From assembly GCA_018060845.1 (NCBI GenBank), contig JAGOVG010000003.1:21759-85758 (forward strand): DNA of 64,000 bases, written 5' to 3'. The position numbers and the translations under genes are program-made. This document shows, in pieces, positions 1 to 35,151 of the stretch. Every line of letters begins with the position of its first letter. Position 1 is the stretch's first letter. The notes under the pieces are model-generated. The model was not told the origin of the DNA, searched no databases, and saw only the letters and a list, made by a program, of their open reading frames with translations. Source of the DNA: Candidatus Woesebacteria bacterium (GTDB lineage: Bacteria > Patescibacteriota > Microgenomatia > UBA1400 > UBA12108).

Positions 1-347
1 TTACGACAGACCTCTTAAAGAGTCTAGGTGGCACCCACCAAATCGCCAACTTTAGCGCCGGCTCCTACGCGAGTCCTGCTAGCTGGTCTGGTAGCGAAAC
101 AGGTTTTGGCTACACTAGCTCCGACACCACTATCCAGGGTTCAAACAAGTTTAGCTCGGGCACACTCTACGCTCCCTTTACCCAAACTGGCCCCGGCGAC
201 ATCGTGGCTGACCATACTAGCACTGTTACAGGGACAAGTATTAGCAATGAAGCCTTTAATATAACCTACAAAGTCAAAGTCCCGAGTGACCAGGCAGCCA
301 CCAACTACACTAGTACCGTCGTCTACACCGCAACCGCTCAGTACTAA
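1..347 (+). CDS. 3' end of secreted Thr/Ser-rich surface protein (cassette A, gene 1). Partial, 5' end outside window.
   Basis: Open frame 3 from position 3 to TAA at 345-347 with no internal stops. Ends ...TNYTSTVVYTATAQY and contains GFGY. The C-terminal Y-x-A-T-(P/G)-x-(Y/F) motif is shared with ORFs 1267-2349, 19634-20362 and 21294-22712. Confidence 0.5.
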   Translation, partial: TTDLLKSLGGTHQIANFSAGSYASPASWSGSETGFGYTSSDTTIQGSNKFSSGTLYAPFTQTGPGDIVADHTSTVTGTSISNEAFNITYKVKVPSDQAATNYTSTVVYTATAQY

Positions 348-365
348 GACTGCTATAGTATATTC

Positions 366-1406
366 ATGCGCTATCTTTTGCTCCTACTTTTACCTTTCAC
401 CTTTTTACTTTTTCCTAGCTCGCTCGCTCATGCGAGCGAAAGCGCTCTCTCCGCCTCCCCCGCTATTCTGGAGACTGTCCTAGAATTAGATAAAGCAACA
501 ACTACTAGTGTCACAATCCAAAATAACACTAACTTCCCCCTGCCGATCAAAGGTAGTGTTAGCGCGTTTTTGAGCACCGAAAAAATAAACGATGAAAACA
601 AAGATACCTTTAACGCTAGTCGCTGGTTTACCCTAGAGCCGGCCGACTTTATTCTCCAACCAAATGAGGTCAAAAAAGTCGAGGTAAAGATCAATCCCCC
701 AAAGGGTGCAGAACCTGGAGGCCACTATGCAACAATCTATTTTCGACCACTAATTCCTCAAGATGCGGTAAGCTCCGGTAGTACCATTTCGCTCGCGCGT
801 ATCGGGATCCTCGCCATGATGATCGTCCCTGGTGATATCGAGACAACACTCGCTAGTAGTCCCGTCTCTGCTCCACTCTGGAGTAGCTTTGGGCCAGTCA
901 AGTTCTTTAGCACCCTAACCAACGATGGTTCCGTTCACCTCCTCCCTAGTAGCACACTAACTATTACTAATGTCTGGGGTCAAAAAGTAACCGAGCTCAA
1001 ATCCGATCCCTCGATCGTGCTCCCACACACCACCAAAGAGAACAACTTTGTCTGGGACAAAAAACTCGGTCTAGGTCCATATTCAGCAACTTTGACCACA
1101 ATATATGGTACTGACGAAAAACCAATAATATCTGACCCCGTGGTCATTTACCTTCTCCCCTGGCCTCTCATTCTTGCCACATTTGTTCTATTGACATTCG
1201 TGTATAAAATCTTCATAGTAAATCGTAGGAGATTAGCGCTCGCTATTCGTGTACTCAAAGGACAATATGAACCGCCAGAAACTATTCAAAAAAACCCTAG
1301 CCACCACACTCGCTCTCGCACTAGGCTTATCCCCCCTAACACCCCTGAGTCAGCTCGGCGGAGTCCACGCAGCCAGTCTAACCGGCGGCAAAGTAAGCCT
1401 GTCTGA
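366..1406 (+). CDS. Secreted cell-surface protein with C-terminal TM anchor, PGGHY motif (cassette A, gene 2). Architecturally DUF916/CscA-like.
   Basis: N-terminal signal peptide (MRYLLLLLLPFTFLLFPSSLAHA). Motif KGAEPGGHYATIYF. C-terminal hydrophobic helix LLPWPLILATFVLLTFVY followed by a basic tail. It lies 19 nt downstream of the preceding paralog-family gene. The long basic tail overlaps the next gene by about 140 nt, so the true stop may be earlier if there is a frameshift. Confidence 0.5.
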   Translation: MRYLLLLLLPFTFLLFPSSLAHASESALSASPAILETVLELDKATTTSVTIQNNTNFPLPIKGSVSAFLSTEKINDENKDTFNASRWFTLEPADFILQPNEVKKVEVKINPPKGAEPGGHYATIYFRPLIPQDAVSSGSTISLARIGILAMMIVPGDIETTLASSPVSAPLWSSFGPVKFFSTLTNDGSVHLLPSSTLTITNVWGQKVTELKSDPSIVLPHTTKENNFVWDKKLGLGPYSATLTTIYGTDEKPIISDPVVIYLLPWPLILATFVLLTFVYKIFIVNRRRLALAIRVLKGQYEPPETIQKNPSHHTRSRTRLIPPNTPESARRSPRSQSNRRQSKPV

Positions 1407-2349
1407 TAGTAGGCCATCTGGCACCGCAGTTAGCTATGACATAGAGTTTGATAATGTAACCACTAGCGCCACAAAGTGTCTTAAGGTAGAGTTTGATACC
1501 GCAGCCGACGGCTCTGGTGGCAAGCCCACTGGAATAGATATCACGAGTGCCGCCCTCTCTGGCACCTCCGACTACATACCCACTCCTGCTTCATGGAGTG
1601 TTAGTAATAACAATACAACAGGCATTAGTAGTATCACTTATGTAACCGGCGAAACACCAGCCGGTGCCTCAGATCGCAACGTCATCTTAACTGGCATTAC
1701 TAATGGCAGTACCGCGGAGACTGGTTATTACGTTCTCTTTAGCACATACAACAACACCGACTGTACTAGTAGCGCTATAGATTCTGGCGTTGGCACTTTT
1801 ATATATGTCACAGGTCAAGCAGTCAGCTTAACCGTTGACCCCTCACTCTCTTTCAACATTGCCGCTGTTGCATCGAGTCAAGCAGTCAATAGTGCCACCA
1901 CAACCGTGACCACTACCGACGGCACCATCCCGTTTGGCACAGTCACATCAGGCGCTCTTAGTATCGCTGCTCATGATGCAACCGTTACCACCAACGCGGG
2001 CTCTGGCTACACTGTCTATATCCGCTATACCGCTGCTCCTAGTAGTGGTGCCAATAGTATCGATGACCACTCAGGTAGCAATGCCGCACCTAGCGCCATG
2101 TCTGCAGGCACCGAAGCCTTTGGTTATACAACCAATGACTCAAGTCTATCTGGCAGTGCAGCACGCTTTACCGACAGTGCGCCCGAATACGCCGCTTTCA
2201 CAACCAGTAATGCAGAGGTCGCCTACAGCGCTGCAGCTGTCTCCTCTCAAACAACTCGCATCGGTTATGCAGTGGGTATCTCCGGTACTACTCCAGCCGG
2301 CACTTATAGTTCCTCAACCGTTATAATTACCGCTACCCCTGCCTACTAA
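1267..2349 (+). CDS. Secreted Thr/Ser-rich surface protein (cassette B, gene 1)
   Basis: ATG at 1267 preceded by AAGGA. Signal peptide MNRQKLFKKTLATTLALALG...VHA. Ends TVIITATPAY. The track ORF starts at GTG 1249, and the ATG at 1267 with an RBS is preferred. Confidence 0.55.
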   Translation: MNRQKLFKKTLATTLALALGLSPLTPLSQLGGVHAASLTGGKVSLSDSRPSGTAVSYDIEFDNVTTSATKCLKVEFDTAADGSGGKPTGIDITSAALSGTSDYIPTPASWSVSNNNTTGISSITYVTGETPAGASDRNVILTGITNGSTAETGYYVLFSTYNNTDCTSSAIDSGVGTFIYVTGQAVSLTVDPSLSFNIAAVASSQAVNSATTTVTTTDGTIPFGTVTSGALSIAAHDATVTTNAGSGYTVYIRYTAAPSSGANSIDDHSGSNAAPSAMSAGTEAFGYTTNDSSLSGSAARFTDSAPEYAAFTTSNAEVAYSAAAVSSQTTRIGYAVGISGTTPAGTYSSSTVIITATPAY

Positions 2350-2407
2350 GCTATGTACTCTGCCTAACCATAATATTTAAAGCAGGGGCAAAGGCAACAA
2401 GGCAGTT

Positions 2408-3355
2408 ATGAAATCAAAAATTCTTTCAAAACTTTCACCCCTCGTCTTACTTGTACCTTTCAACTTTTACCTTGCGTCACTCGTCCTTGCCCAATCAGCT
2501 AACAGCACCCCAAGCACTGGCTTAGCCGTTACTCCTCCTACATTCGAGTTAAATGGTAACCCTGGCGACAATATCAAAAATACTGTCAGACTCGACAACA
2601 TGCATCCCTATCCCGTCGAGATTGCAGTAGATCTACGCAACTTTACGGCCGTTGGTGAGGATGGTGCAGTTGGTATCACCGAAGAGCAAAATAGTTTTAG
2701 CTTGGCTAGCTGGATCGAGATTACACCAAAAACTATCACTCTCGCCCCCAAAACCTCACAGTACTTTACCTTTAACATCAAAGTTCCGCTCCAAGCCGAA
2801 CCCGGTGGTCACTTTGGCTCGCTAATCTTCCGCACCATCCCAACCGAAAAACTCGAAGGTAGTGGTGCTAGCCTAGCCCAGGAGATCGGCGCCTTAGTAC
2901 TCTTACGTATCGCCGGTGAGACGGTCGAACAAGCCAACATCGAGAGCTTTAATCCTGTCAAAAGTTTATTTGAAAAAGGTCCAGTTGGTTTTGAGATCAG
3001 AGTCAGAAATCAAGGTAACGTCCACACCAAGCCTAGTGGCACCATCATCATTACCAACATGCTCGGAAGTCAGGTCGCAAGCGTAGTCGTTGAGCCAAAA
3101 AATATATTGCCAGCTGCTACCCGCAAACTAGAGGCAGTTTGGGATACCAAGTGGCGCCTCGGCCGCTACAGCGCCACCTACACCGCCGTTTTAAGTGACC
3201 AAACTACTCGTAGCGCCACAACTACTTTTACCATCCTCCCATACCGAGCCATAGGCGTTGCGCTCGTTATTGTCATCATTCTGATTATCATACTCAAGAA
3301 GTATCAAAAACGACTTAGCCTAGCCTGGAAGATACTTAGATCTGGTAAAGCATAG
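2408..3355 (+). CDS. Secreted surface protein with C-terminal TM anchor, PGGHF motif (cassette B, gene 2)
   Basis: Signal peptide. Motif QAEPGGHFGSLIFR. C-terminal TM GVALVIVIILIIIL followed by KKYQKR. Paralog of 366-1406 and 22712-23677, and likely also of 20365-21279. Confidence 0.55.
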   Translation: MKSKILSKLSPLVLLVPFNFYLASLVLAQSANSTPSTGLAVTPPTFELNGNPGDNIKNTVRLDNMHPYPVEIAVDLRNFTAVGEDGAVGITEEQNSFSLASWIEITPKTITLAPKTSQYFTFNIKVPLQAEPGGHFGSLIFRTIPTEKLEGSGASLAQEIGALVLLRIAGETVEQANIESFNPVKSLFEKGPVGFEIRVRNQGNVHTKPSGTIIITNMLGSQVASVVVEPKNILPAATRKLEAVWDTKWRLGRYSATYTAVLSDQTTRSATTTFTILPYRAIGVALVIVIILIIILKKYQKRLSLAWKILRSGKA

Positions 3356-3367
3356 GAGATCTCTCCC

Positions 3368-4231
3368 ATGCGATACATTGTCCCCATCCTTGCGACTTTA
3401 ACCTTTCTCCTTTCCACTATCCTCGTACGTTCCGAAAGCCTGACTGTCTCACTCGTAGTCGGCGTTACCGAAGTCGTCTTTTCTGGCTACACTAGTCCGA
3501 GCAGTCAGATTGTAATCAAAGAAGATGGTAGTGTCGTAGGCACTACCACGAGCGATAGTAGCGGCCTCTGGACCAAAACAGTCTCGGTTGCCGTCCCAAC
3601 CACTCATACCTATGAGCTCTATGCTACTGATGCGAGTAGCATCGCAAGCGCAACCATTAGCTATTCTCTAAGTGTTGCAGGCGGTACAACAACTAGTATC
3701 AGCAACATTGTAATGCCCCCAACTGTAATTCTCTCTGGAACAACCTTATCTGGTCAAAGCTATCCTGGCAGCTCACTGACCGCAACTAGTGACCTAGGCG
3801 ACACCCTAACCCTAACTGTCCCAGGTAGCGGAATGTGGTCAACGGACCTAACCACTTGGCTCACTGGCGGCCCACACAATATAAGCGTCGTTACAACCGT
3901 TGGTAGCTTTATTTCTCTCAGTAGCACTAGTCTTACCTACACTACCCCTGCTCCCTCACCGAGCCCCACTACTACTCCTAACTCTAGTTCCAGTTTGAGT
4001 CCTACTCCAACCTCATCACCATCACCTTCTCCAAGCTCAGCACCTACATCCACACCCATCCCCTACGCAATCGAGATTTATGATCAAAACCAAGATGGTC
4101 GCCTCGGCCTAGGTGAACTCATTAGCGTCATCACCAGCTGGCTCAAACAACACCTACCCTGTGACTTAAACCGTGATACTCGCTGTGATCTGATCGACCT
4201 CTCGATCTTACTTTATTACTTTGAACGCTAA
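3368..4231 (+). CDS. Secreted Ser/Thr/Pro-rich protein with C-terminal two-repeat dockerin-like module
   Basis: Signal peptide. PT-rich linker (SPSPTTTPNSSSSLSPTPTSSPSPSPSS). Two Ca-loop-like segments, DQNQDGRLGLGE and DLNRDTRCDLID, each followed by a hydrophobic helix, as in type I dockerins. Confidence 0.5.
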   Translation: MRYIVPILATLTFLLSTILVRSESLTVSLVVGVTEVVFSGYTSPSSQIVIKEDGSVVGTTTSDSSGLWTKTVSVAVPTTHTYELYATDASSIASATISYSLSVAGGTTTSISNIVMPPTVILSGTTLSGQSYPGSSLTATSDLGDTLTLTVPGSGMWSTDLTTWLTGGPHNISVVTTVGSFISLSSTSLTYTTPAPSPSPTTTPNSSSSLSPTPTSSPSPSPSSAPTSTPIPYAIEIYDQNQDGRLGLGELISVITSWLKQHLPCDLNRDTRCDLIDLSILLYYFER

Positions 4232-4249: not shown

Positions 4250-5236
4250 ATGAACATATTAACTATCGCCAAGCAAGCCTTCTCCCTCATCCTCTACCTC
4301 ATCTTGGCATTTATCCTTATCCACTTTTTAGCAGTCTTTGGAGTCTTTTTAGCGCTCGCGATCCCCCTTCTCCACCTCGCTTTTTACCCCAATATCACTT
4401 GTTTTAGCTGCCACATTAGCAAACGTCCTCATTCATTTAAACACTCACTCCTCGATGCCACACTCATCCTGCTTCTAACCCTCCTCTCAATTCCTATTAT
4501 TTATGGCGAGACTAGATTGATTAGCTATATTTTAAGCAAAAGAACGACTCCTACGATTGCAACTATTGCCGAGTTTAGTATCCCCGCTCGTTCACAGTAT
4601 CCAGTCGGCACTATTTTCCCGCTCCCCCTCGAGCTCAGGCGGATTCCCTCTGCCATCAACGTTGCCCAGGCCGACCTCGCATTTGACCCCAACCTCCTCG
4701 AAGTCGTCGACATCACAACTGATGGGACCTTTGCCGAGTTTTTTGTTCAAAAAGAATTTGATAATCAAAAAGGCTACCTTAGGTTAAGCGGCGGCATCCC
4801 CAATCCTGGGTATAACCGAGCCGACGGCCTCATTGGCACCGCCTATTTCCGCGCCAAGTCAGCCGGTGCCACAACCCTTAGATACTTAGAGAGCTCGCTC
4901 GTCCTCGCTAACGACGGCCGTGGCACCAACCTCCTCTCCGACTACCCGACCATCAACCTCATCATCACTCCGGGAACAGGTATTGGCGATGCTACATCTT
5001 CTGCCCTCACCATCAAGAACATGGTTCAGGGCGACAGCGACAAAACCGTGCTTAGCTTTACCGAATATGGCGGCGATCTCCCCAAACCGCTCAACAACGT
5101 CAATGGCACAAGCACTACTATGCCTATTCCCACCAAGCCACAGTCACTGCCCGCCGAATCCCCGCTTCTTGCTCATTTGCTCTCATTTAACCAGCAAGTA
5201 CTCAGTATCTACCGCTACCTACTCTCCAATTTATAG
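4250..5236 (+). CDS. Membrane-anchored protein with cohesin-like domain
   Basis: Three N-terminal TM helices. Then a domain resembling type I cohesin, GTIFPLPLELRRIPSAINVAQADLAFDPNLLEVVDI...GLIGTAYFRAKSAGATTL. Compare the cohesin pattern G.P.VYFRGVPSKGIANCDFVFRYDPNVLEII...GVFAKIRATVKS. It lies immediately downstream of the dockerin-bearing gene. Confidence 0.45.
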   Translation: MNILTIAKQAFSLILYLILAFILIHFLAVFGVFLALAIPLLHLAFYPNITCFSCHISKRPHSFKHSLLDATLILLLTLLSIPIIYGETRLISYILSKRTTPTIATIAEFSIPARSQYPVGTIFPLPLELRRIPSAINVAQADLAFDPNLLEVVDITTDGTFAEFFVQKEFDNQKGYLRLSGGIPNPGYNRADGLIGTAYFRAKSAGATTLRYLESSLVLANDGRGTNLLSDYPTINLIITPGTGIGDATSSALTIKNMVQGDSDKTVLSFTEYGGDLPKPLNNVNGTSTTMPIPTKPQSLPAESPLLAHLLSFNQQVLSIYRYLLSNL

Positions 5237-17571: not shown

Positions 17572-18954
17572 ATGTCAAAGTATTCTATGTTTAATCACAT
17601 CTTGTTTCGCACTACAGCGTGTGTCTTTTTGACGATTGCACTCAGTTTCATATCTTCTTCTCCTGTACTAGCTCAGAGCACTCCAGGCATCACTACTGGC
17701 AGCATTCGCAAACTAGACGTCACTCCACCAAGCGGCGGCTACTTTGAGCTGCCATTTTTTATGACATCATTTAACAATACTCGTGTAATTAATGTTCCAA
17801 CAGCCTGGACTTTTACCTGCAATGTCACTGCCAACCCTCTTACTACTAGCATTAACACCAGTAACTCTAGTTGTCTCTTAACCAACAAGAGTCTCATCCA
17901 CCAAAAAGATTCTAGTGTCACTGCTCCCTACGCCCGCAACTATATAGCGACCGTTACCAACCACTACATTAATGTTGGTGGCTCACAGAGGCGCTATAGC
18001 GTTAACCACGGCGAAAATAAGAACGAAAAGGTTAATGGTGTAGCATATCAAAACTCAGTTAACCCTGATATCACTACTTCTACGTGTATGTCACAGTTAG
18101 TAAATGGTGTCTACCAAGACTGTAATGCTTCCTACCACTCGTTTATAACTCTAAGCTACGGTGACAGCTATCCACAGACAGATCTTGGACCCATCATATG
18201 GCCCGATCGCGGCTACTACTCCCCTCACCCTAATAACTCAGGAGTTCGCTGGAGCCACTCTTTTGTCCGCATTCCTCATGGTTTTGTTAATGACGGGTAC
18301 CTGTACGTTTACTACCACGAACAATCCTCCTACAACGATAGAATTGGTTTAAAAGTGGCTCGCGCTCCAATCAACAATCTGACCCCAGCAGCATTCAAAA
18401 AATACTCACAGGGTAGCTGGGTCCCAGCACTACCCTCTGGTTTTGACAACAACAGAATTACAGATTTTTATAATCAGCCAACCAGCGACTCTAGCCCTAT
18501 TATCCCAAGAGTTACTGGCGTCGCGCATATTTCTATGGCTGTCACCAAGACTCAATCAGGCTCATTTTTGGGGATCGAAGAAGCAATAGTCAATAATCAG
18601 TGGGCGCTGCGCCTCTACTCAACGACTGATCTAGTCAACTTTACTCTTCTCGGGACCGTTGCACAGGAGGCTAGTTATGCCGCAGGCAAACTTCATTACC
18701 CCGTTTTTCTAAACGCGGCTGGCGACAATAGTAGTCTAGTTGATACTAATAATTTTTACGTAGTCGGTAGTAGCCACACTGGCGAGATCTCGGTACTCCC
18801 GTTAAGCGTCTCTAACATGAAGCCCAGCAAGCCAGGTGACCTTAACCTTGATGGCACAGTCAATCTCATCGACTTTAATCTCCTAATCACCAATTTTGGT
18901 AACCCTTATACTATCCTCGACTTTAACTCGATCATTAGTAACTTTGGCAAATAA
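17572..18954 (+). CDS. Secreted protein of unknown function with C-terminal dockerin-like module
   Basis: Signal peptide. C-terminus KPGDLNLDGTVNLIDFNLLITNFGNPYTILDFNSIISNFGK, nearly identical to the tail of 8368-10182. Confidence 0.55.
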   Translation: MSKYSMFNHILFRTTACVFLTIALSFISSSPVLAQSTPGITTGSIRKLDVTPPSGGYFELPFFMTSFNNTRVINVPTAWTFTCNVTANPLTTSINTSNSSCLLTNKSLIHQKDSSVTAPYARNYIATVTNHYINVGGSQRRYSVNHGENKNEKVNGVAYQNSVNPDITTSTCMSQLVNGVYQDCNASYHSFITLSYGDSYPQTDLGPIIWPDRGYYSPHPNNSGVRWSHSFVRIPHGFVNDGYLYVYYHEQSSYNDRIGLKVARAPINNLTPAAFKKYSQGSWVPALPSGFDNNRITDFYNQPTSDSSPIIPRVTGVAHISMAVTKTQSGSFLGIEEAIVNNQWALRLYSTTDLVNFTLLGTVAQEASYAAGKLHYPVFLNAAGDNSSLVDTNNFYVVGSSHTGEISVLPLSVSNMKPSKPGDLNLDGTVNLIDFNLLITNFGNPYTILDFNSIISNFGK

Positions 18955-18963
18955 TACCAACCA

Positions 18964-19614
18964 TTGACAAGGATAGTCACCCTCTGTCATATTAGAGATA
19001 TGCCAAGTATTCTACTCAAACGCGACTACCTAGCCGGGTCTTACTACCACATCAAGCATCAGGCCAAAAAAGATACACTATTGTTTCAGACTGAGGCCGA
19101 CTACAAAACTTTTATCCTGCTCCTCTCTTACTACCTCCGCTTCCCCGATGCGACCCCTCTCTCTTGGGTCAAAAGACTCAACCCCAAGACAGTTGTCGAC
19201 AAACGAAACAAGAGCGAGCTGGGGGCTAGCCCTGTCACCCTCCACTCTTTTCTCCTCCTCCCCGACCACTTCCACCTGGTTCTCAAAGAAAACCAAGGGG
19301 GCAAAAAACCCGGGATCAGCAACCTCATGCGCAGGCTCTCAGTTGGCTACGCCATGTACTACAACAAAACTTACGGAGTAAAAGGCACCATCTATCAAGG
19401 CAAGTACAAAAATATTCAGATCAACCAGGACGACCTATCTCCACTCGTGCAGTCGCTCCACGCTCACGACAACGTCAACTCGACATATATGAATAGCCCG
19501 CTGCACAGTAGCGCTAGCGACTATGGTAGTAGCGCCCGACCATGGATCACACCACTACCTCTAGGTATGGAAGATAATGCCAAACTAAATCCTCGCTTAC
19601 TGCTAGACAAATAA
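18964..19614 (+). CDS. IS200/IS605-family Y1 (HuH) transposase-like protein, REP-associated tyrosine transposase-like
   Basis: YYHIKHQAKKDTLLF resembles the N-terminal YHxxxxxKxR motif. PDHFHLVL is an HuH motif. YQGKY provides the Tyr motif. There is no tnpB partner. The start is possibly the Met at 19000. Confidence 0.5.
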   Translation: MTRIVTLCHIRDMPSILLKRDYLAGSYYHIKHQAKKDTLLFQTEADYKTFILLLSYYLRFPDATPLSWVKRLNPKTVVDKRNKSELGASPVTLHSFLLLPDHFHLVLKENQGGKKPGISNLMRRLSVGYAMYYNKTYGVKGTIYQGKYKNIQINQDDLSPLVQSLHAHDNVNSTYMNSPLHSSASDYGSSARPWITPLPLGMEDNAKLNPRLLLDK

Positions 19615-21293: not shown

Positions 21294-22711
21294 ATGTCCA
21301 AATTGCTTGTAGGCTATTCTGCCCTTGTCCTCACTACTCTGGTAACACTTATTAACCCGAGCTCGCTCAATAGCGCCAACCTAACGACCGTCAGAGATAC
21401 TCTCCAGACATCAAGACTCTCAGTTAATGCGCGGGTGGACGCTACAGGTACAACTGTTGGCAGTAGTAACGTCAAACTCAAAACTGTCGCTAGTGCCCCA
21501 GCCAACACCATTAGTACCGGCAACCTGAGAGCCCAAGATAGCTTGGTAATAGGGACTGGAACCTACACCGTAGTCGATATCGTTGACGCAGACGAATTTA
21601 CCGTCACCCCAGTCCTGGCTAGCGGCGATGCCGACGACAACGATCCTATTTATTTAAAAATACGTCCTCGCCACGCCATCCAGTTTACGACAGCTAGCGC
21701 TGTCGCTAATGGCTATTTCCAGGTCCTTCTCCCTGCCGATCCAACTACCCCAAACGACGGCAACCCAGATGACCAGGGTTATGACTTTAATACTACTGTC
21801 AATGTGACAGCTCCCGCAGACGTCGGCTCTACTTTTGATTTTGTAACAGGTGTCGCAACGGCAGCTGGTGCCACAGGTTGTACTAGCCCAGCCAACTATC
21901 ACTGTTTTGAGTTTCACTACAGTGGCGCTGGCGGAGTCGGCCAAGCTTTTACCCTTTATATCGGTAACACCAATGGTAGTAACACTCCAATAGCCCCTGC
22001 GACCGGCACTGCGCACACCGAAGGTACCGCCGACACCTACCCTGTCTTGGTTCGCCAATTTGCCGCAGATACCAACCCCAATTCAGCCACACCAATCGAT
22101 GCAACAAGCGCTCGGGTCGCCCACATCGAAGCAGTACGAGTAACAGCCACAGTCGAACCAACTATCAGTTTTAGTATCGCAGGCATCGCATCAGGCGCTA
22201 CCCGCTGCGGTATTAGTACTGATGTTACAACCACAGCCACCAGCGTCCCCTTTGGCAGCATGACTCTAAACAGTTTCAAAACACTAGCCCAAGATTTGAC
22301 TGTTAGCACTAACGCTAGCGGAGGCTATGTCGTAACTAGCAGTGAAAACGACCAACTAGGTCTCGGTGGTGGCACCACTCCCTTTATCCCAGATACCACT
22401 TGTGATGGCGGCACATGTAGTGAGAGTACGGCAGTAGAGTGGGCAACAGCCACCAATAATGGTTTTGGTTATAGCCTGGAGAATGTAGATGCAGTAACCA
22501 TCGCGTTTGAGTACGACACTAGTGGCGACACATTCCGTAGCAAGCAGTTTGCCGATATTACAGGCAGCGAAACACCTCAGACTATCTTTAGTAGTAGTAC
22601 AGTCGCCAACGCCGAGAATGCTTATGTCTGTTACCGCTTAAGTGTAGGTGCTACTCAAGCAGCCGGCGACTACGAGAACCAGATTACTTACACTGCCACC
22701 GGAACCTTCTA

Positions 22712-22712
<1 letters not shown>
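21294..22712 (+). CDS. Secreted Thr/Ser-rich surface protein (cassette D, gene 1)
   Basis: Contains TCDGGTCSESTAVEWATATNNGFGY, a paralog of the 19634 protein. Ends YTATGTF. Confidence 0.55.
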
Positions 22713-23677
<965 letters not shown>

Positions 23678-23695: not shown

Positions 23696-24955
23696 ATGCC
23701 CAAGTTTTTTATTGTTCTAATTCTTACTACTTTCAACTTTCTAATCTCTACTATTTCAGTCCACGCTGCAACAGATCCTATATCGGCCACAGTTAGTGCA
23801 ACCGCCAGGATCCCTAGCGCTAGTCCAACTACAGACGATACCGCAGCTCCCCCTGCCGTTATTTTGATTTCCCCTCACGATGGCGCGACCACCAACCAGT
23901 CACGCCCCGAACTAGTATGGAAGACGACCTTTGATAGTAATAGTAACAACGTAAGTTATATCGTCTACCTCAATGGTGTAGCTACCTATCTAGGTGTTAG
24001 TAATACCGGCAACTCACAGCAAAATAACTACATCTCCCATATCGGAGATGGCAACATTTATCTGACACCGACCATTGATCTACCTGCCGGTACCTACGAT
24101 TGGTATGTGAGAGCCATAGATGGCAGCGACAACTCTAGTTTCTCTACCACCTGGCGCTTTACCATTGATCAGACACCGCCGCAACTCACAGTGGTCAATA
24201 TTGATGATGTCTATCTCTCCCCATCCATTACAGAGGGTACTAGCTTTGATTTACCAGGACCACAAGAGGTCAAGATCATCTTTGCGACCGAGAGCTACGC
24301 TACAGTCTCAGTAACCATAACACTCAGTGATGGGACTTTAAGGTCTGTCAGCTTGCCTACCAGTAGTTCTGGTCTCGCCACACTCCTAACCTCGCTCCCG
24401 TTAGGAAGACATGAGATAGTCGCAACTAGTTTTGACTCTGCAGGCCTAACCACTACCCTACCCACCTTCTACCTCAATCTCACTACCACCACCATACCTG
24501 GTATTACAGGGTCGCCCATCCTGCCTATACTCAAAAATATCGTCAATCTACCCGCAAAACTGATAGTATTACCCGCTACCATCTCCCAGATCAAAGATGC
24601 TCAAGTGTTCGCATATGGTTATTCTATATTGCTAGCATTAGCAATAGCCATACTGCTAATCATAATCTGGAGCAGGAGATATAACATCACGATCCTTGAT
24701 ACTTCAACCAACAAGCCCTATCGATCACTTATCGTATACCATAGTAGACCTACTCACTCCGCGAGGCTAGGTGACTTAGCTAGTCGCATCTTTGTAACCT
24801 CTCGCTCACCTATCCTCTACGAGCTAGGGAGCAGTGGCAGGGCCTACATTAGTCATCTGTCGCGCTACAGTAGCTTAACTATCCGCACACCTAGTGGTAC
24901 TACCCACATCCTCTCGATCTCATATAATCTGAACAAGTATGTAATCTGTCTCTAG
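23696..24955 (+). CDS. Secreted Ig/FN3-like surface protein with C-terminal TM anchor
   Basis: Signal peptide MPKFFIVLILTTFNFLISTISVHA, paralogous to the cassette signal peptides. Beta-rich repeats. TM ILLALAIAILLIIIW near the C-terminus. Confidence 0.45.
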   Translation: MPKFFIVLILTTFNFLISTISVHAATDPISATVSATARIPSASPTTDDTAAPPAVILISPHDGATTNQSRPELVWKTTFDSNSNNVSYIVYLNGVATYLGVSNTGNSQQNNYISHIGDGNIYLTPTIDLPAGTYDWYVRAIDGSDNSSFSTTWRFTIDQTPPQLTVVNIDDVYLSPSITEGTSFDLPGPQEVKIIFATESYATVSVTITLSDGTLRSVSLPTSSSGLATLLTSLPLGRHEIVATSFDSAGLTTTLPTFYLNLTTTTIPGITGSPILPILKNIVNLPAKLIVLPATISQIKDAQVFAYGYSILLALAIAILLIIIWSRRYNITILDTSTNKPYRSLIVYHSRPTHSARLGDLASRIFVTSRSPILYELGSSGRAYISHLSRYSSLTIRTPSGTTHILSISYNLNKYVICL

Positions 24956-25243: not shown

Positions 25244-28200
25244 ATGAAAAACACTGTCCAATTACCCTCTACTCACACAGCTCTCTTAACCGCCTTCAGG
25301 ACCTACTTGGCTAGTCTCGGCTTAAGCAGTATTAGCCGCAAGCTCTACTCTGCAGATATAGCTCGATTACTCGCCTCAAGTCTCTTTAGTGATCTCAATG
25401 TCGCTACCCTGACCAACCCCAAGAACTATGCATCCTACCTCTCCCAGCCCGAGCTAACTAGCTCTAGCACCCTACTCCGCCGCACACTCGCATCACTTCG
25501 CCAATTTGGCACCTTCCTCAATCAGAGTTTTGACCTCCCAAGCCCCATCACCAACCTCTCTCTAGCCTCCAACACCCTCTCAAACACCATTAGCAACAGT
25601 TCGAGCAAGTATATCAAAGCATGCATGGAGTATCTCAAAGACAATCATCTAACAGATTCGAGTATTAGGTCCTATAAATCAGACATCACCCAGTACCTCA
25701 CCTACCTAGAGTCTCACCACCCTAGCACTCAGATAGGGAGTCTGCTAACTGATAAAAATCTACAAAATTACACGGATCTACTCACTCATTTGGATACCCA
25801 ATCCCCTGCTACCATAGAGCGCAAAATCAAAACTATCAGACGATTTTTGAACTGGTACAGCAGTACCAAGTTGCAGGTAGTAGTATCCGATAACACAAAA
25901 ATCCCCGCATCCAGTTCACATATCTCCCCTCTGTCCTCTTCCGTCCAGGTCAATGGTGTTAACTCCGCACAGGCAGAGCTCTACTCAGATCAACCTCAAA
26001 CTCAACTACCAGATCACAAGTACAATAATGTGAAAACTAGCAATTACCGCAAACTACGTCTACCCACTCTAAGAATGATCCTAAGCGGCGTAATCCTCTT
26101 AGTCTTAGTCTCCACACTCTCAATATTCTCTTATCGACAGTTTGGCCGTGACGCTAGTCTAACTGCCGCCTTCCCCTCTACTCCAGTAACCCCCAATAGG
26201 CAGTTGAGTTTTCAGGGTCGCTTAGAGAATGCGAGCGGCACCCCAATCACTGCCGCGACCAACTTTGTCTTTAAGCTCCACGATGCCAGTAGCGGTGGCT
26301 CAGAACTATATAGTAGTGGTACCTGTAGTATCACCCCCGACACCGATGGCGTCTTCTCAACACAAATCGGCGGGACCTGTGGCGCCGGGATCGCGAGCTC
26401 TGTCTTTACCGAGAACGCAGATGTCTGGCTCGAAGTCACAGTCGGTGCCGAGACTCTAACCCCTCGCCAGCAGATTGCAACCGTCGCCTACGCCCTTAAC
26501 TCTGAGACCATCCAGGGCTTCCCGATCAGCGCCACAGTTAGTGCGATCAGAAACACAGTTGTCCCCATGAACCAGTGGGGCGAGATCATCGTTGGTGAAC
26601 AGTCCCCTCGTCTAACCGGAGTCTCAGGTACTTTTCAAATCTCGGCCCCCTCCCTCTCCTTAGTTACTGCAACTGGCACCAACGGCAACATCACATTAGC
26701 CCCCGACGGCACTGGTCAGGTTAATGTCAATGGCAACACCACTACCACCAACTTCTTTAATGTCAGTAACGCTCAGCTTACAACCGGATCCTTGATTACA
26801 GGTACTGCCGCCAACAACAATACAGGGTTCAACTTACTTGATCTATTATCAGGTGCCTCACCTACCAGCAAATTCTCGGTATCTGATTCAGGAGATACCA
26901 CAATTGCAGGCACACTCTCATTACCCAACTCAAATAATATGACTGGTGTCGCCAATGGCGTTCAATTTAATGAGGGTATTTTTGTCGGAGGTGGCACAAC
27001 TTACTATTTTGACGTTGGGGGTGAGCTAAATGCAGCAGGTGGGGCCTTCTCTAATGGCTTAAGCATCATTAACGATTCTGCTCTATCTGCTTTTGGCCAA
27101 GTAAACTTAGGTGATGGAGGTGAGACTATTCATCTAAACGGAACTAGCATTACACTCACTGGCTTTGACTGTACCGGCAACACCAACGGTGGCGCCCTGA
27201 CCACCAATGGTTCTGGGGTTCTACAGTGTAGTGATGACGACGGAGGTGGTGGTGGCAGCGGTGGTCTCTGGCAAGACACTACACTAGGCGCCATCTCCCC
27301 AAACAACTCTACCTGGGACGTCTTGGTAGGTGGCACAGCTACTAGTAGTGCCAAAATCGGTTTGATCAATATAAATAGCGGCACCCCTACCATCAATCTA
27401 GCTAACCAAGCCAGTAATCTAGCAGTAATTGACAATACCAGTAACGCCCTACGTATCCTCGAAGGAGCCAACAACTATCTCGCACTCACCACAACTAACG
27501 CGAGTGAAAACTTGTCATTTGGCAATACAACCACCAATCCTACATTCTCATTCCTAGGCACAGGTCTCACTACTCTTAGTGGTGGATTGACGGTTAACGG
27601 CATTACAACTATCGGCAACAACTCAGCGACTGTCGCTATCAATAGTAGCGACTGGGATATCACGACAGTCGGTAATATGTCTGGAATTGGAACCATTAGT
27701 AGCGATGGTGACTGGACCAACAGTCAGGCAACGCCATCTATATTTTTGACTGATTCTACAGCTAGTTCAGACGACTATAGCGTCAATGTCGACGCTAACG
27801 TATTTAATATAACCAATGCAACAGACTCTAGAATAGAGCTAGATTTCGCAGGTAACGGTAGTATCAACTTTGGCGACAACACTGCCACCAAGACTATCGA
27901 CATCGGTGGTGTCACAAGCTCAGCCATCGACACTATTAATATAGGTACCAACGCAACTGCCGCAGATATTATCTCTATCGGCAACAACCATGCATCAACT
28001 ACTCTTGCTCTCACAGGCGGTACAGCCTGGAGCATCACAACAGCAGGCAATCTAACTACCAACAATACAACAGTTAACGGTAATACAATCCTCGGCAACG
28101 CCATTACCGACACAATCGACTTCCAGGGTCGGGTACTACAAGATGCAGACCTCATCCCTATCACTACTACTGGGACCAATGACTTGGGTAGTTCTGCCCT

Positions 28201-31200
28201 CGCCTGGGACAACCTCTACACTAACGCTGCCTACTTTGCAGGCGGCACCAGCTTCTATGTCGATGCCTCGGGTAACGCTAGATTTAACGATATTATCGCT
28301 GCCGACACCGCTAACCCAGGTATCACCGTCGGCGATGGATCAACTGGCTTCCTCAAAGTTGGGTCACTGACAGTAGGAGACAATAATGCAAGTGTCGTGA
28401 CCTTTGATACTAACAGCGACGCAACTCCCGAATTTCAGCTCTACAACACCGGTTCCGCCACTGCCTCGGGCGACATTACAATGGGGGGACAGTTGCAGGT
28501 CGGTAGATTTGAAAACACTCCAACAGCCATCGGTGCCGGCACCATGATCTTTAATACGACTACCAACAGTTTCCAATGCTACAACGGTACCGCCTGGACT
28601 AGCTGTGGTGGGACGCTCTTTAGTAACTCTAACGCAAGTGTGGCCGATGGCAGCTATATTACAGTCACTCACAACTTGGCCAGTAACGACCTCCTCTCCA
28701 ATGCCTGGATCAACGCACAAGGGGTCTGGAAGAGTCTCGATGCCAGCTATAAACCCGCGATCGCTTGGGAGGGCAAGGATACTCAAAAAGGGATCTATCA
28801 CAACGCTCTAAACAGCTATATCCCCTCCTCAGAGACAGGCACCGGAACCAACACTCTCCATGAGGGGATGATCTTTGACACATTTGAGGACACAACCAAG
28901 ACCGATAGTGCCAACACCACGGTCAGCACCAACCAACAAATAGGCGATGATGGTAGTAGTAACTTTGTCACCCTCGACCAGCGCATCCAAGGCGGGCGGG
29001 TCGGGCTAGTTGGTGGTCAAACTTTGAGTACTGGTGAAACAGACAATGATGGCCAAGCATACTTAGGTAGCAACACAGTTAATGATATGTATTATTACGA
29101 TAGAGCAAAAGATAGCGTACCAGAAGTTTTAGTAGAACTTGGCATTGATCCAAACTGGTATAACGGAGTTACTCTTTCAGTTGCAACAGGTAGTGCAAGT
29201 TATTCTCAATCAGGAACACTTGCAGACAAGAATCCAAACCTAACAACTACATATAACGGTAGTTTAATCAAAGCAACAGGAACTGATTCAACACCGAGAA
29301 CAATCTTTATAACAATCAAATCCCCTACTACATTTGATTGGACAAACTATGAGGGTGACTCTGCAACAGCAGTCACAATTACTCCAGGAACTGCACAGGC
29401 ACTAGGTAGTACAGGCGTATCAGCTACTTTTACAGCTACAAACTACAACGTCGGTGATGTATTTAAAATTGCCTCTTGGTATATAGAAGCAGAATCTGCA
29501 ACAAGAGGAGCAAAACAACAGTTTCCAGAAAGAAGTTATGTTGTAGCTTCAGGTACAGCAGGAGCAGGTTTTATTGATGTGATCGACGCCGACACGCAAA
29601 AATTATGGATTAAGTTCACAGAAGGTACTGGGTACTACCTTCGCTCTACAGCAAATCGCGTCCCCCACACTGTTGACATGCTAAACGGCAAATTATACTT
29701 TGGTCAAAAGGATTCTAACAATGGGATCCTAGAAAGGATCAACTTTGATACAGATTCACTACACTTATGGACCCCGTCTGCTAAATACACCTACGACCAA
29801 GGAATATCACAAAGGAATACAGCCAGTAATATATTAACAATCAACACAACTGAAACAACTGTTGCAAACGACGTCAACGATGTTTCTGCAGCCGTCATCC
29901 CAAATCAACCGTCACAACAGATGACTCTGACAGGCTGGCGAGTTCACCCCGGCAATGGAACTGCAACCCTAACTTCTGGTGTTGACTTCCAGTATCCGTT
30001 TACCGACACACCTCAAATTCAAGTAAGTATTGTTGGTAGAACCACCTCAACTACAACGCCAAAAAGTCTAAAGGACTGTTCGACTAATGTCGATTCTGCA
30101 ACCATCTCAGCATACAACAACAATCCAGCTAACTTTTATGCAAGATTTTCCAACACAACCTTCTCTGCTTCTTACAATTATTGCTTTGTTTGGAGTGCGA
30201 CAGGCACAGTTGCACCAAAACAAATCGTGGCGGTTGCGACAGGCACAACTGGGGCAGATGGAGGAACGACTATTATCAACGAAACTGACGGTAAAAAGGC
30301 CGACATTTTAATTGGCTCACAAAACGCTTCAGTATTATGGCAAAACAAGGTTGCATTGGCTCAAGATGGCACGTTGTATGTCGTATTAAACAACCAATCG
30401 ACAGCAACAACCCTTAATGTCTATGCTGGAGCGTCGGGCATACCTGAAGTAATTTCTCAAGAACCAACCTGGGCAGCTTATCGCAATGGATTCTATTACC
30501 TTGATTTGCAAACACAAGGATGGTCAGCAACTGGTCCGGTCATTAAAGGAGTAGGTACAAACTCAGATGAAGTTAAGTCTCTATCTGTAACTAGTGGAAC
30601 CAGTTCAATATCTCCCGGAGCAAATACTATTTATGTTGGCACCTCTACAGGTGTAACCGTACTTAATGAAGCCAACATAGAGCCAGATTACAATAGTGAC
30701 GAACCAAGCAACGGCTCAGTCAAATACTACACCAAAGACTACGTTTCTGAAGAAATGATTGGCGATGTAAGAGGAATGTGGGGTATGTATGATACTGATA
30801 CAGACATTGACACGGCTGAAACAACAGATGATGTCTCGATTAAAAATCTTAACCTAACAGCTAACAACGCAAACAGTACTGGGTTTACCTCAACCTCAGG
30901 AGTTCGTGGTGAAGGTATAACTTTTGATGGTACCGACGACTACTTTAGTCGCGCAGATGACGCATCACTTAGTTTTTCTAACAACACCATGTCGGCAAGT
31001 TATTGGGTAAAACGTAATGGAAATCCATCTTCTGCTGAATATATCATGCTCAAAGGAATTACCACCTGGGAATATGCTTCTGCTATTACTACTGCAGGTA
31101 AAATTATCAGCTGGTTATTTACTTCAGCTGGAGCTACTGTCGCAACTGTTACTTCTAATTTATCTGTCACTGACAATGAGTGGCATCATGTAGCTATAAC

Positions 31201-34200
31201 CTCAAATGGTTCTACTATTGCTGTGTATATCGACGGGCAATTAGACAATAACTCCACATCATTCACCAGTGCAATGACAAATACTGCATCAAGTTTTTAT
31301 GTCGGAGACAGATCAGACATAGCTAATTCAGAGTTCCAAGGTTCATTAGATGAATTAATGATAACTGGCACTGCTTTATCGAGTAGTCAAGTTAGGAATA
31401 TCTATCAAGTTGGCTATCGTGCATTACAAAGTCATACAAGTTCTGGATTAGGTACAGGTGGTGCAGATACTAACCAACAGCTCGGATACATTTCGACAGG
31501 TACTAGCTCTGTAGGTGTAGTTCAACCGGATTACAACAACCAATATATGTACGTAGGTACAAACTCAACAACACTTGGAGCTCTATCAAAAATACAATTG
31601 AACAGTGATACAAATATTAAAACCTACAACTCCAGTGCAAACGTCCCTACTGGCGGTGTTCTTACTTTAGATGAAGACATAACTTCCCTAGCAGTTGGAG
31701 AAACACTGTATGCAGTTGGTTCTGCAGCAAGTGGTGTTAAAACAATGGGACTGGATAACAATGCAACTGCAACTAGTGGTAACTTTGTCAGTAAAACCTA
31801 TGCGCTACCAAAAAATATTGGCTCTGCAGTTCTTTGGGTCTCACCAATTATGGACAGCAACGACGGAAGTAACACAATCACAGTACAGGCAAGTAACGAT
31901 GGTGGTAGTAACTATGCAACTTGTACTCTAGTAAACACAAATACAAATTATGATGCACCAGAACGTGAGTATGCCTGTACATTTACAGCTGCAGACAACG
32001 ACCTAAAAGTTAGATTTCAAATGGCAAGAGGAAACACAAAAACAAATACCTATGTTGTCCAATATGGAATTAGCTGGTTAGGTGAAACTGGTTTTAGAGT
32101 CGAACAAGCTGATAACAACAATGTAAGGTTATATAACTTCTCAGGTGAAGCTCAAAACTTAAAGTTAAACATAACTGGTGCATCAACTTCTGCCCTAGCA
32201 AACCCATGGACAGATGGTGGTAGCTACATTTACGCAACAGGATATGAAACATTAAGAATATATGACGGTGCAGGAACAAATTACTTAGGACTCTCTCATG
32301 ATGGAACATATGCAACATTGGGCTACAATGGTACAGACTTTATCAACCTCACATCAACAGGTGATTTATTACCAGAGACAAATGATACTCAGGCTCTTGG
32401 TTCTGACTCATTTAGATGGGAAGATGTCTTCCTCGGTCCAGGTAGCGTTCACGTTGGAACCTCAACGACTGACGAAGGTGTTATATCTTATGATACATCC
32501 GGTAACATCTTAAATATTGGTACGGATAGTACTAGTAATGGAGATATTGCATTCTTCACCGACGACCTCTATCTAGATAAATCGTCTGGATTTATCGGTC
32601 TCGGCGATATAACTCCAGATTACTTACTTGACGTCGCAGGCACTGCAGGGTTTGACTCAACGCTCACACTTACCGGATCAGCAGCAAATGTCGCACTCGG
32701 ATCAAACTACCTATCAGGCGATGGTGGTGATGAAGGAGTCTATGTTGACTCCAGTGGTAACGTCGGCATTGGGAATGCCTCACCTGACAGACCATTACAA
32801 GTTACGAGATCAACAACAGGCATACCTATGAGATTACAAAACAATTTTACAGATTCATCTGAGTACTGGGTAGTCGGTCCGTCAGACAGTGATAACTTCG
32901 CGATATTTAATGATGCAACAACTGGTATGTATATTGCGTATGGTGCCACCTCTTGGACCGCCAACTCAGACGAACGACTAAAGACTAACATCGAGGCGCT
33001 CACTAGTGTAGAAGGACTGGCATCTCTTCTAGAGTTGACTCCGGTCAACTACAACTGGAAAGACGTTAACACCAATCAGAGCAAGCAAACAGGTTTCTTA
33101 GCTCAAGAAGTCCAGCGTCTCTTCCCAGGACTTGTAAGTTTAGGAGAAACCACAACAATTACGCTTGCTGATGGCTCGACCCAGACGATCGAGGCACCCC
33201 TTGGCGTCAACTACACTGGCTTTATCCCATACATCATCAAAGGGATCCAGGAACAACAAGCACAGATTAGTCAGATGTTCCAAAATCTCATTACACCTCA
33301 AGTTAATACCGCCATGATATCCCCTCTCGCTCCAGGGCAGTCCATCGAGATCACAGCCCCCGTCGTCATCTCACCCACAACTCCCAACCTAGACACGCCA
33401 ACTCTCATCGTTGATGGTGAGATTGAGGCCACGACCATCTCTGCTCGTGTAGCTCAGTTAGAAACCATCCGTGCCGAGACAATTACCGCCAGAGACATAG
33501 TAGCCGACACTATCACTGCCAACTCAATTGTCGGTCTAGATGCCAAAATAGCTAGTCTCTCAGCCGGGATCAGCGAATCAGATTTCGACTCGATCTCCGA
33601 GCGGATCAGATCTAGATTAGCGAGCCTGACTGGTGGCGAGGCAAATGCCCAGGACGTCCCCGCTCCTCCCTCTATTCCTGAGACAGTAATCGAATACTCA
33701 GAGCTATCCACTGCCTCAGCTACGCTAGCTACTGCCGACATAGACTTTGTCACAGTCAATCAGTATCTCGCTGTCATCGGCTCAGCCACCATCACTAGTT
33801 TGGATATAACTAGTGACCTCTATACTAATAGAATAGGTAGCAAGGATAACCTCCTCGCCATCCAGCCACTCGGTGGGATAGTCAACATAGCAGACAGCAC
33901 ATTTGTTGTAGATAGTAGCGGCCAGGTCATGGTCAACGGCGACTTAACAGTCTCCGGACGCATCCTAGCCGAATCAGGCAACCTAGGTTCGCTTGAACTA
34001 GGTTCGCCATTGGACGCTTCAGCTAGTAGCGCGCTAGGCAACCTCCTCTCTATCTACAACGAGCAGGGACAAGCGGTCGCAACTATAGACGCTTCAGGCA
34101 GTGCCAATCTAGCGGGTCTCACCACCCAGCTAGTAACCATCGCATCAGGTGGAACCTCCGCCACTCAGTCAGGACTGATCTCAAGTCAGACGAGTAGCAA

Positions 34201-34453: not shown

Positions 34454-35151
34454 GACAATCAATGTGGTTTAATAGATCTATGCTCAACTCTAGACGACGT
34501 GGTTTTACATTAATCGAATTACTAGTAGTTTTGGCTATCCTAGCTATCTTAATGATAATTGCTTTGAGTATGGTTCAGACCAATAGAGACAAAGCAGTAG
34601 ATAGCAAAATTAAAGCCGATCTTCAAAGGTTAAAGATTGTCTTCGAAGATTACCATGCTGACAACGGCTGCTACCCGCCACCCAGTTTTTTCGACGATCC
34701 TAGTGATTGTGGCGCTAGCCACCTCGCTCCATACTTAAGCACGATTCCCTGCAATCAAAAAGGCGGTAATCCCTACACTCTCGAACGTGACCCCACAGGG
34801 TGTGAGTGGTTCAAGATTTATGCTGATCTATCACTCTCAACCGATCCTCAAGCCCTAGAACTCTGTTCACCCTCTGGATCCAGTCTTGGCAACTATGCAA
34901 CCAGCTCAGACAACGTAGTCCCGAGTGTCCTGTGTGATGCTCAACCTAGCTCATCTGCGCCGAGCTCTGCTCCGGGTGTGTCACCATTACCACAAGGTCA
35001 CAACTACTATTACTGCAGTGCACAGGGCAACTGCACCAGTTTTAACGAAGAATCTCACGTCTGTACACCCTATTTTGTAGATAATCCTAACTGCAATGGA
35101 ACCATCAGTCCTTGCACTACTCAGTTTGTTGGATCTTGCACCTCGCTATAA
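34450..35151 (+). CDS. Type IV pilin-like protein (prepilin N-terminal cleavage/methylation domain) with Cys-rich C-terminal domain
   Basis: GFTLIELLVVLAILAILMIIAL carries G-1/F+1 and Glu+5. The leader is about 18 aa. The ATG overlaps the giant gene's TGA as ATGA. The C-terminal domain has 14 Cys. Alternative start ATG 34480. Confidence 0.75.
   Translation: MRQSMWFNRSMLNSRRRGFTLIELLVVLAILAILMIIALSMVQTNRDKAVDSKIKADLQRLKIVFEDYHADNGCYPPPSFFDDPSDCGASHLAPYLSTIPCNQKGGNPYTLERDPTGCEWFKIYADLSLSTDPQALELCSPSGSSLGNYATSSDNVVPSVLCDAQPSSSAPSSAPGVSPLPQGHNYYYCSAQGNCTSFNEESHVCTPYFVDNPNCNGTISPCTTQFVGSCTSL

Follow-up and report, generated by a model that had tools for sequence, protein, structure and literature searches.

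Two probable Pam-type pilus operons in a Candidatus Woesebacteria genome, with a membrane-anchored chaperone for each pilin

We analyzed a 64,000-nucleotide (nt) stretch of a Candidatus Woesebacteria genome (GenBank assembly GCA_018060845.1, contig JAGOVG010000003.1, positions 21,759 to 85,758 of the forward strand; hereafter, the window), in which a first-pass annotation had described four two-gene surface cassettes, A to D, each comprising a secreted Thr/Ser-rich protein (gene 1) and a membrane-anchored protein (gene 2). Our analyses indicate that the window probably carries two Pam-type pilus operons, operon 1 (giant A1-A2-B1-B2-X-Y) and operon 2 (C1-C2-D1-D2-R-giant), in which the gene 1 products are pilins and the gene 2 products their chaperones. 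The finding is real but is largely explained by a published system, the Pam pilus, with its NCBIfam family NF058581, which is an already characterized family that accounts for the gene pairing, one of the outcomes that the first-pass annotation had named as refuting its reading. The first description of Pam pili dates from 2026 and concerns a single cultured species of Saccharimonadia; the pili are thought to make the first contact with the host cell (10.64898/2026.03.03.709456). Cryo-EM of filaments of Candidatus Mycosynbacter amalyticus, a member of the candidate phyla radiation (CPR), identified the pilins PamA and PamB; the pam operon also encodes the chaperones PamC and PamD, which are PapD/FimC-like but, unlike the classical chaperones, have a C-terminal transmembrane (TM) helix, a membrane-anchored RbmA-like protein, PamR, and a tip subunit, PamT, with a tail-fiber-like protein as a conserved neighbor (10.64898/2026.03.03.709456). 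Pam has been reported in CPR bacteria only, and Troman et al. (bioRxiv 10.64898/2026.03.03.709456) name the Microgenomatia as one of its main carriers. The system in the window is of the Pam kind, distant from it in sequence and differently organized.

The gene 1 products, all encoded, like A2 to D2, X, Y, R and the giant of operon 2 below, on the plus strand (window coordinates), are A1 (3 to 347, cut by the window edge), B1 (1267 to 2349; its longest open reading frame [ORF] starts at 1249), the small pilin C1 (19634 to 20362) and the large pilin D1 (21294 to 22712, 472 amino acids [aa]). They have an N-terminal hydrophobic segment alone and a Ser+Thr content of 25 to 31%. In composition-corrected BLASTP, with E-values for the cassette proteins computed in an 11-protein database, homology among them was confined to the C-terminal ∼190 aa (C1–D1, 40% over 151 aa, E 1e-22; B1–D1, 39% over 80 aa, E 7e-11; A1–B1, 31%, E 1e-5). 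An independent profile built from 121 database representatives detected all four, with E-values from 6e-16 (A1) to 3e-127 (D1), and no other window protein. The C-terminal motifs pointed out in the first-pass annotation are present, with FGY invariant, (Y/I)TAT(P/G/A)x(Y/F) at the C-termini and TCD(S/G)G(S/T)C common to C1 and D1. C1 combines a short N-terminal part with the C-terminal module and contains a Cys146/Cys151 loop. A Pfam scan of the gene 1 products returned nothing above threshold. The only significant NCBIfam family, and the sole one matched by all four, was NF058581 (CPR_Pam_pilin_C, "Pam pilus system pilin subunit"), which aligned with B1 over model positions 2 to 148 of 148 (E 1.4e-8, 35 bits) and gave E-values of 2e-3 for D1, 0.08 for C1 and 0.1 for A1. 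At E ≤0.01 the same model matched 53 of 56 B1 orthologues (best 1e-12) and 104 of the 121 wider-family representatives, five of which also match NF058579, the PamT model.

The AlphaFold2 (AF2) model of B1 (predicted local distance difference test [pLDDT] 88.8) contains a β-sandwich at residues 39 to 179, a conserved linker at 184 to 192 and a C-terminal domain at 194 to 358, as would be expected of a two-domain pilin. The linker, QAVSLTVDP (1816 to 1842), is a candidate donor strand: G183, Q184, V186 and V190 are each conserved at ≥90% in the family, yet residues 185 to 188 have pLDDT values below 50, a combination that fits the expectation for a strand that becomes ordered only in the groove of a partner. 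With a four-sequence profile, the C-terminal module was recovered in 2,374 cluster representatives, 1,480 of them at E ≤1e-10. It extends to the last residue in all 150 listed relatives, which range from 148 to 2,723 aa; the long module proteins match the profile from about position 30 only and thus seem to be without the linker part.

The gene 2 products A2 (366 to 1406), B2 (2408 to 3355), C2 (20365 to 21279) and D2 (22712 to 23677) all have an N-terminal hydrophobic segment, taken as a signal peptide, a C-terminal TM segment and a basic tail, in agreement with the first-pass annotation. Three of them are clearly homologous in composition-corrected BLASTP (A2–D2, 28% over 295 aa, E 4e-32; A2–B2, 30%, E 4e-30; B2–D2, 30%, E 2e-39), and C2 is divergent (B2–C2, 23% over 281 aa, E 5e-7). 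The motif PGGH(Y/F) was likewise found where it had been placed, in A2 (AEPGGHY), B2 (AEPGGHF) and D2, and is absent from C2. In the AF2 model of D2 (pLDDT 83.8), two Ig-like β-sandwiches (residues 29 to 135 and 152 to 268) are followed by a TM helix (271 to 298) and a cytoplasmic helix (302 to 320). Foldseek searches of the Protein Data Bank (PDB) with this model returned as top hits the Enterococcus faecium WxLIP (9i25_C, "bound to long WxL," E 1.9e-12; 9i1y), followed by the chaperones CfaA, CupB2, FimC, DraB, Caf1M and CsuC (E 5e-11 to 5e-8); RbmA and the PapD-like domains of CEP192 were matched too. The PGGHYAGIFF strand of D2 and the low-confidence conserved loop after it, ..RTVSYTTTQVGSLF (23081 to 23179), form a candidate F1-G1-like donor hairpin. 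In this loop (residues 136 to 151), T144, S146, Y147, T148 and Q151, and just after it G153, are conserved at ≥90%, and pLDDT falls below 50 at residues 142 to 149. By analogy, strand and loop are similar to the F1-G1 segment in chaperones of the PapD type and to the hairpin of WxLIP.

Several further features of the gene 2 set were observed. The D2-type cytoplasmic tail, R(H)L.HR.D.RD.EIDELKRKI.E(L/M)EN (23588 to 23677; D2 residues ∼293 to 321), is near-invariant in D2 orthologues and predicted to be helical, and A2, B2 and C2 are without it; it may be a contact point for a cytoplasmic partner. In six genomes (L030 at 7493, L050 at 7407, L051 at 7465, L064 at 1353, L071 at 4743 and L076 at 6191), the gene in the C2 position begins 3 to 7 nt past the pilin stop codon and encodes a chaperone with no signal peptide. 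The spacing of 0 to 20 nt given for all pairs in the first-pass annotation does not hold for B1 and B2, which are 58 nt apart. A2 and B1 overlap by 140 nt (1267 to 1406), a stretch in which the A2 frame enters B1 as a basic low-complexity tail. Since the A2 orthologue of a related locus, L083, stops 11 nt upstream of the B1 start, the A2 extension looks like the result of a lost stop codon in this lineage.

Both operons recur in other genomes. A scan for operon 2, taking one genome per species, yielded 80 loci, and the order small pilin (C1), chaperone (C2), large pilin (D1), chaperone (D2), R and giant with Peptidase_S74 domain is complete in 50 of these; most of the others are cut by contig ends. 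Identity to D2 across these loci goes down to ∼35%. R follows D2 in 65 loci. In the window, R (23696 to 24955) is the fifth, TM-anchored Ig-like protein that had been noted after D2; it has a signal peptide, a Big_13 Ig-like domain (E 8e-8), a TM segment at residues 302 to 331 and a cytoplasmic tail of ∼90 aa, making it a candidate for a PamR-like terminator or anchor. The sixth gene encodes an N-terminally anchored giant of 3,069 aa (25244 to 34453), which fits the description "tail-fiber-like" because it contains Laminin_G_3 and Peptidase_S74 domains. Informatively labeled loci are assigned by their labels to CPR lineages (Woesebacteria, Pacebacteria, Shapirobacteria and Microgenomates), and many are labeled "uncultured Pseudomonadales" or similar, which we take as mislabeling. 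The operon 1 order was found again in L081 to L083, which represent two close relatives, one of them a Woesebacteria metagenome-assembled genome (MAG), and a WWE3 genome. The position of X and Y is also kept there: X (3368 to 4231), which is secreted, has an Ig-like (Big_6) domain and ends in a dockerin-like EF-hand, and Y (4250 to 5236) is an N-terminally membrane-embedded protein with TM segments and a cohesin domain (E 7e-7). The operon orders are thus conserved across Microgenomatia and WWE3. Because these orders and the positional orthologues are conserved across genomes, the four pairs are, as judged from sequence comparison, old, position-specific members of two operons and not recent duplicates.

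The same comparisons changed the reading of A1. The pairs lie where the first-pass annotation had put them and are homologous, but A1 is part of a much larger gene: over its 114 residues it shares 94.7% identity with the C-terminus of a protein of 3,020 aa from the related Woesebacteria MAG (L082), and in two other genomes it matches the ends of proteins of 3,019 and 3,445 aa at 62 to 66% identity. A1 therefore represents the last 114 codons of a giant protein of ∼3,000 aa with a Pam-type pilin module at its end. Such A1-type giants, of ∼3,000 to 3,400 aa, are encoded at L082 1 to 8814, L083 2 to 9058 and L081 1 to 8941. The Woesebacteria orthologue in L082 has a Peptidase_M23 domain near its N-terminus, and the WWE3 protein carries DUF2341/Laminin_G_3. 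Among five other giants ending in the pilin module, an N-terminal M23 domain is present in three, two of which have Laminin_G_3 as well. A1 is a probable tip subunit, and the A1-type giant a candidate for a tip of the pilus that degrades cell walls. The Pam preprint (10.64898/2026.03.03.709456) uses none of the terms M23, peptidase, peptidoglycan and adhesin.

Some observations weigh against assignment to the Pam system. All NF058581 scores in the window are ≤35 bits, under the NCBI curated cut-off of 55 bits, and no NCBIfam Pam model matches the gene 2 products or R. Sequence searches against PDB chains, with single proteins and with B1 and D2 profiles, gave no meaningful match. Gene order also differs from that of the M. 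amalyticus operon: here, every pilin gene has its own chaperone gene immediately downstream, and the genes form two separate operons. Finally, ATP synthase genes, reported as neighbors of pam operons, were not found among 40 further window ORFs that we scanned in addition to the ten cassette proteins; the only ATP-synt_ab domain belongs to Rho. The sub-threshold scores have a practical consequence, since pilins that fall under the NCBI naming cut-off leave such loci currently invisible to annotation; D2 (MBP9702487.1) and C1 (MBP9702484.1), the two window proteins that we looked up in GenBank, are labeled "hypothetical protein."

The parallel to the Firmicutes csc/WxL clusters drawn in the first-pass annotation provides the leading alternative, namely a nonpolymerizing WxL/Csc-like surface complex in which each gene 1 product would remain a single protein at the wall, held and stabilized on the surface by the adjacently encoded WxLIP-like membrane protein, as proposed for Firmicutes WxL clusters. 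For comparison, WxL clusters were drawn from metagenomes through the conserved motif NQIDKxxxYFDLK, and three of their WxLIPs, checked against Pfam, scored far above the cut-offs in both domains. The gene 2 products score below the PF06030 (DUF916) cut-off of 27.3 bits (B2, 21.3 bits, E 2.8e-4; D2, 19.6; A2, 12.3; C2, no match), and 29 of 55 gene 2 family members match PF06030, likewise below the cut-off, the best at 1.4e-6. Global hhalign scores are inflated by signal peptides and TM segments, and ectodomains were trimmed for the profile-profile comparisons. The CPR chaperone ectodomain then scored 95.8% against WxLIP (E 8e-9) and its domain 1 alone 96.3% against the DUF916 part (E 1.5e-9), and the same queries gave 0.2 to 0.3% against reversed WxLIP. 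Given these high scores and the low reversed control, gene 2 products appear to be distant WxLIP/DUF916 relatives as well as having a PapD-like fold, and the PGGHY strand of D2 aligns with the WxLIP motif F(E/D)G(V/I)I.GG. Domain 2 scored 0.5% against WxLIP, and PF11797 (DUF3324) matched neither the gene 2 products nor their family. On the gene 1 side, the pilin module scored 1.0 to 2.1% against 22 WxL domains from the same loci, and the gene 1 products have no PF13731 match at E up to 1 and no W-x-L motifs. Hence, the parallel went beyond analogy for gene 2 but found no support for gene 1, and none of these proteins satisfies the definitions that Pfam sets for the families of the WxL cluster. 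Motif hints of homology between gene 1 and WxL (TVSTNA..GY.V versus VTDNRGT..GW.L, and C-terminal Y...I.Y.ATP versus Y...LTW.L...P) were considered, but with hhalign at 1 to 2% we do not claim it.

That D2 finds its best structural match in a WxLIP bound to a long WxL protein, and that domain 1 appears to be a distant DUF916 relative, speaks for this alternative, as does the gene content: a small module protein, a large or giant module protein and an anchored two-Ig protein mirror the small WxL protein, large WxL protein and WxLIP of the Firmicutes clusters (PMC10599100). Against it are the missing WxL signals in gene 1 and the missing DUF3324 signal in gene 2 domain 2, the fact that gene 1 matches the Pam pilin model instead, and the filaments formed by relatives with the same module in Candidatus Mycosynbacter. 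We consider a nonpolymerizing complex unlikely. The Pam and WxL readings may nevertheless be compatible, as AF2 predicts that a hairpin strand of WxLIP completes the WxL sandwich (PMC10599100). A different account, that a lineage-specific adhesin cassette spread recently in this genome by tandem duplication and recombination, would agree with the head-to-tail pairs in two arrays and with the TTTCTAC heptamer common to the D2 and C1 signal peptides. The paralogues, however, are just 22 to 40% identical, each has its own positional orthologue in dozens of genomes, down to ∼35% identity, A1 is not a cassette-sized gene, and orthologues bear different heptamers at the same site. The "recent" in this account is already refuted, and we judge the account as a whole highly improbable. 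Least probable of all, to the point of being negligible, is that the resemblances are compositional, arising from Ser/Thr-rich sequence and hydrophobic ends rather than homology. The Ser+Thr content of gene 1 and the inflation of global hhalign scores would favor such an explanation, but composition-corrected BLASTP E-values reach 1e-39, positions other than Ser and Thr are invariant, among them FGY, PGGH and isolated columns of N, P and F, the trimmed ectodomains score 96% versus 0.2% for reversed controls, and the AF2 folds are confident. Indeed, BLASTP, the 121-representative profile search and the trimmed hhalign comparison have already refuted it.

The heptamers bear on how the signal peptides evolve. 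The first-pass annotation had described near-identical signal-peptide DNA in different cassette members and proposed recent recombination. Mean column identity of these DNAs is 53%, and only D2, in its signal-peptide core, has a perfect run, (TTTCTAC)x4.3 at 22729 to 22758 (also readable as CTTTCTA repeats); the period-7 tracts in C1 and C2 (19655 to 19690 and 20385 to 20415) are imperfect. In 1.27 Mb of related loci, there are 15 perfect period-7 runs of ≥3.4 copies, compared to 0 to 2 for periods 5, 6 and 8 to 11; eleven of these runs fall in the opening ∼75 nt of C1, C2 or D2 orthologues. Perfect tracts occur at these 5′ ends in L002, L005, L010, L012, L013, L014 and L063. The repeated unit varies by genome (TTTCTAC, TTGCTAT, TTTCCTA, ACTGCAT, AGATTCC, TTCATTT, GTATGCC and TCTGTTA, the last in 8.4 copies). 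Among the proteins that cluster with D2 at 90% identity, the mature parts are near-identical by inspection, yet there are four unrelated signal peptides. Unlike heptamers at the same site, together with differing signal peptides, point to local slippage and fast turnover and not to recombination between cassettes; this argues for the heptamer runs as local microsatellites in signal-peptide DNA. As a change by one seven-nucleotide unit would shift the reading frame, an on/off switch is conceivable, and the tract might mark a hypermutable or phase-variable region, but the idea found no support: a metagenome pattern search for heptamer copy-number variants found nothing, and no frame-shifted "off" orthologues were seen.

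Returning to the Pam-type reading, we can sketch how the two operons might work, by analogy with Pam structures and chaperone-usher biology. They would build a fiber of monoderm CPR bacteria through usher-free donor-strand exchange. Each pilin (B1, C1, D1 and, in giant A1, the C-terminal module) would be exported by Sec, and the chaperone encoded adjacently downstream (A2, B2, C2 or D2), held at the membrane by its C-terminal helix, would cap the presumably incomplete Ig-like C-terminal module, with the capping strand probably contributed by the PGGH(Y/F) strand and the loop that follows it. The linker strand of the next pilin (QAVSLTVDP in B1; family consensus ExVxVxATVxP) would then displace the chaperone strand, and the fiber would grow from its base at the membrane. 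R would end and anchor the operon 2 fiber. For operon 1, which is without R, we suggest with low confidence a split anchor in which X, a possible base or anchor adaptor, docks on Y, its possible membrane receptor. The giant A1 protein, with its M23 peptidase and lectin-like domains and its pilin module last, would be the first subunit in, since its module seems to be without a donor linker, and would hence be located at the tip of the operon 1 fiber. In this scheme, the homologies within each protein set, the domain architectures, the family matches and the conserved gene order are observed, and polymerization, the identity of the donated strand and the roles of R, X, Y and A1 are inferred. 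Such assembly is in line with the surface-fiber system suggested in the first-pass annotation, which our data support; its notion of a lineage-specific family expanding by duplication gives way to two operons of conserved order.

Additional genes in the window touch on the operons. Two further proteins with cohesin domains, and one more whose C-terminus is dockerin-like, are encoded at 17572 to 18954, 37056 to 37814 and 37853 to 39247; with X and Y, these suggest that this CPR genome has a cohesin-dockerin surface network. Just upstream of C1, a 216-aa protein (18964 to 19614) contains ..LLPDHFHLVL.., an HUH-like motif, and has no Pfam match; it is possibly a relative of Y1/REP-type transposases, and it appears again upstream of the operon in about ten related loci, sometimes in two copies. 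At 34429 to 35151, slightly overlapping the 3′ end of the tail-fiber-like giant, lies a gene with a type IV pilin N_methyl motif (E 2e-10), followed by a TPR protein and two cohesin proteins. Promoter and terminator scans gave counts at chance level, and the operon boundaries are not defined by them.

The window thus presents a Woesebacteria version of Pam-kind machinery, with two conserved operons and one chaperone per pilin. Three leads go beyond the published Pam description: the link to WxLIP, the M23/lectin giants that end in the pilin module and the heptamer tracts. Of these, the module as the last domain of M23/lectin giants suggests a testable idea of the function of the fiber's tip.

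Among known systems, sortase-assembled Gram-positive pili share with the window system multi-Ig-domain subunits on a monoderm surface. They differ in that the window operons show no LPXTG, operon sortase or pilin-motif sign: LPx(T/S/A)G is found in none of the twelve operon proteins, and no sortase turned up among the proteins scanned. An isopeptide/sortase pilus reading was rejected on the absence of the LPXTG motif. The chaperone-free donor-strand fibers, TasA-like TLP fibers and archaeal bundling pili, are unlike the window system in having no dedicated chaperone gene beside each subunit, and matches to them were no better than those to cohesins or YcnI. Chaperone-usher pili (PapD/FimC, CfaA, Caf1M and CsuC) are closer, with the two-domain Ig-like chaperone fold, a long conserved loop after the last strand of domain 1 and, presumably, donor-strand complementation and exchange. 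By contrast, the window system has no usher, outer membrane or PapD-family sequence similarity, with no usher domain among the proteins scanned and PF00345 and PF02753 matching no operon protein, so the chaperone likeness is structural only. Moreover, its chaperones are membrane-anchored, its pilins have an extra N-terminal domain, and its putative donor strand is an internal linker and not an N-terminal extension.

The Pam pilus itself provides the best fit. The predicted arrangement of B1, an N-terminal sandwich, a linker and a C-terminal domain, is that described for PamA and PamB; the gene 2 products have the plan of PamC and PamD, chaperones in which two Ig-like domains precede a C-terminal TM helix; an operon gene encodes an Ig-like protein anchored by a TM segment (R here, PamR there); and both systems have a tail-fiber-like (S74) neighbor, here the giant with Laminin_G_3 and Peptidase_S74. 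Beyond the differences in gene order weighed above, the window system is unlike Pam in that one of its subunits is a ∼3,000-aa M23-peptidase/lectin protein and in that operon 1 has a dockerin-like/cohesin pair (X/Y) instead of the TM-anchored R. In the literature searched, the only account of donor-strand pili in CPR bacteria was the Pam preprint, and no paper ties WxL to donor-strand or chaperone-usher assembly.

The WxL/WxLIP (Csc) system resembles that of the window in the plan of gene 2 (signal peptide, two Ig domains, TM helix and basic tail), in partners of both small and very large size whose shared module is C-terminal, and in a chaperone strand predicted to complete the partner's sandwich. 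It differs in that the window system has no WxL motifs, PF13731 match, DUF3324 signal or NQIDKxxxYFDLK motif, and in that descriptions of WxL proteins have them bound to peptidoglycan and not forming filaments. Structure and profile comparison nonetheless tie the gene 2 chaperone to the WxLIPs of enterococci, listeriae and lactobacilli. We tentatively raise, as a view less probable than not, that Pam and the Firmicutes WxL/WxLIP system are branches of one ancient usher-free monoderm system, in which a two-Ig chaperone completes and hands over modules, the tip of one such fiber in Woesebacteria is a ∼3,000-aa M23 endopeptidase/lectin protein facing the host, and the heptamer tracts are perhaps hypermutable switches. 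If the WxLIP link is true, the poorly understood WxL clusters associated with virulence and colonization could be re-read as chaperone-subunit systems.

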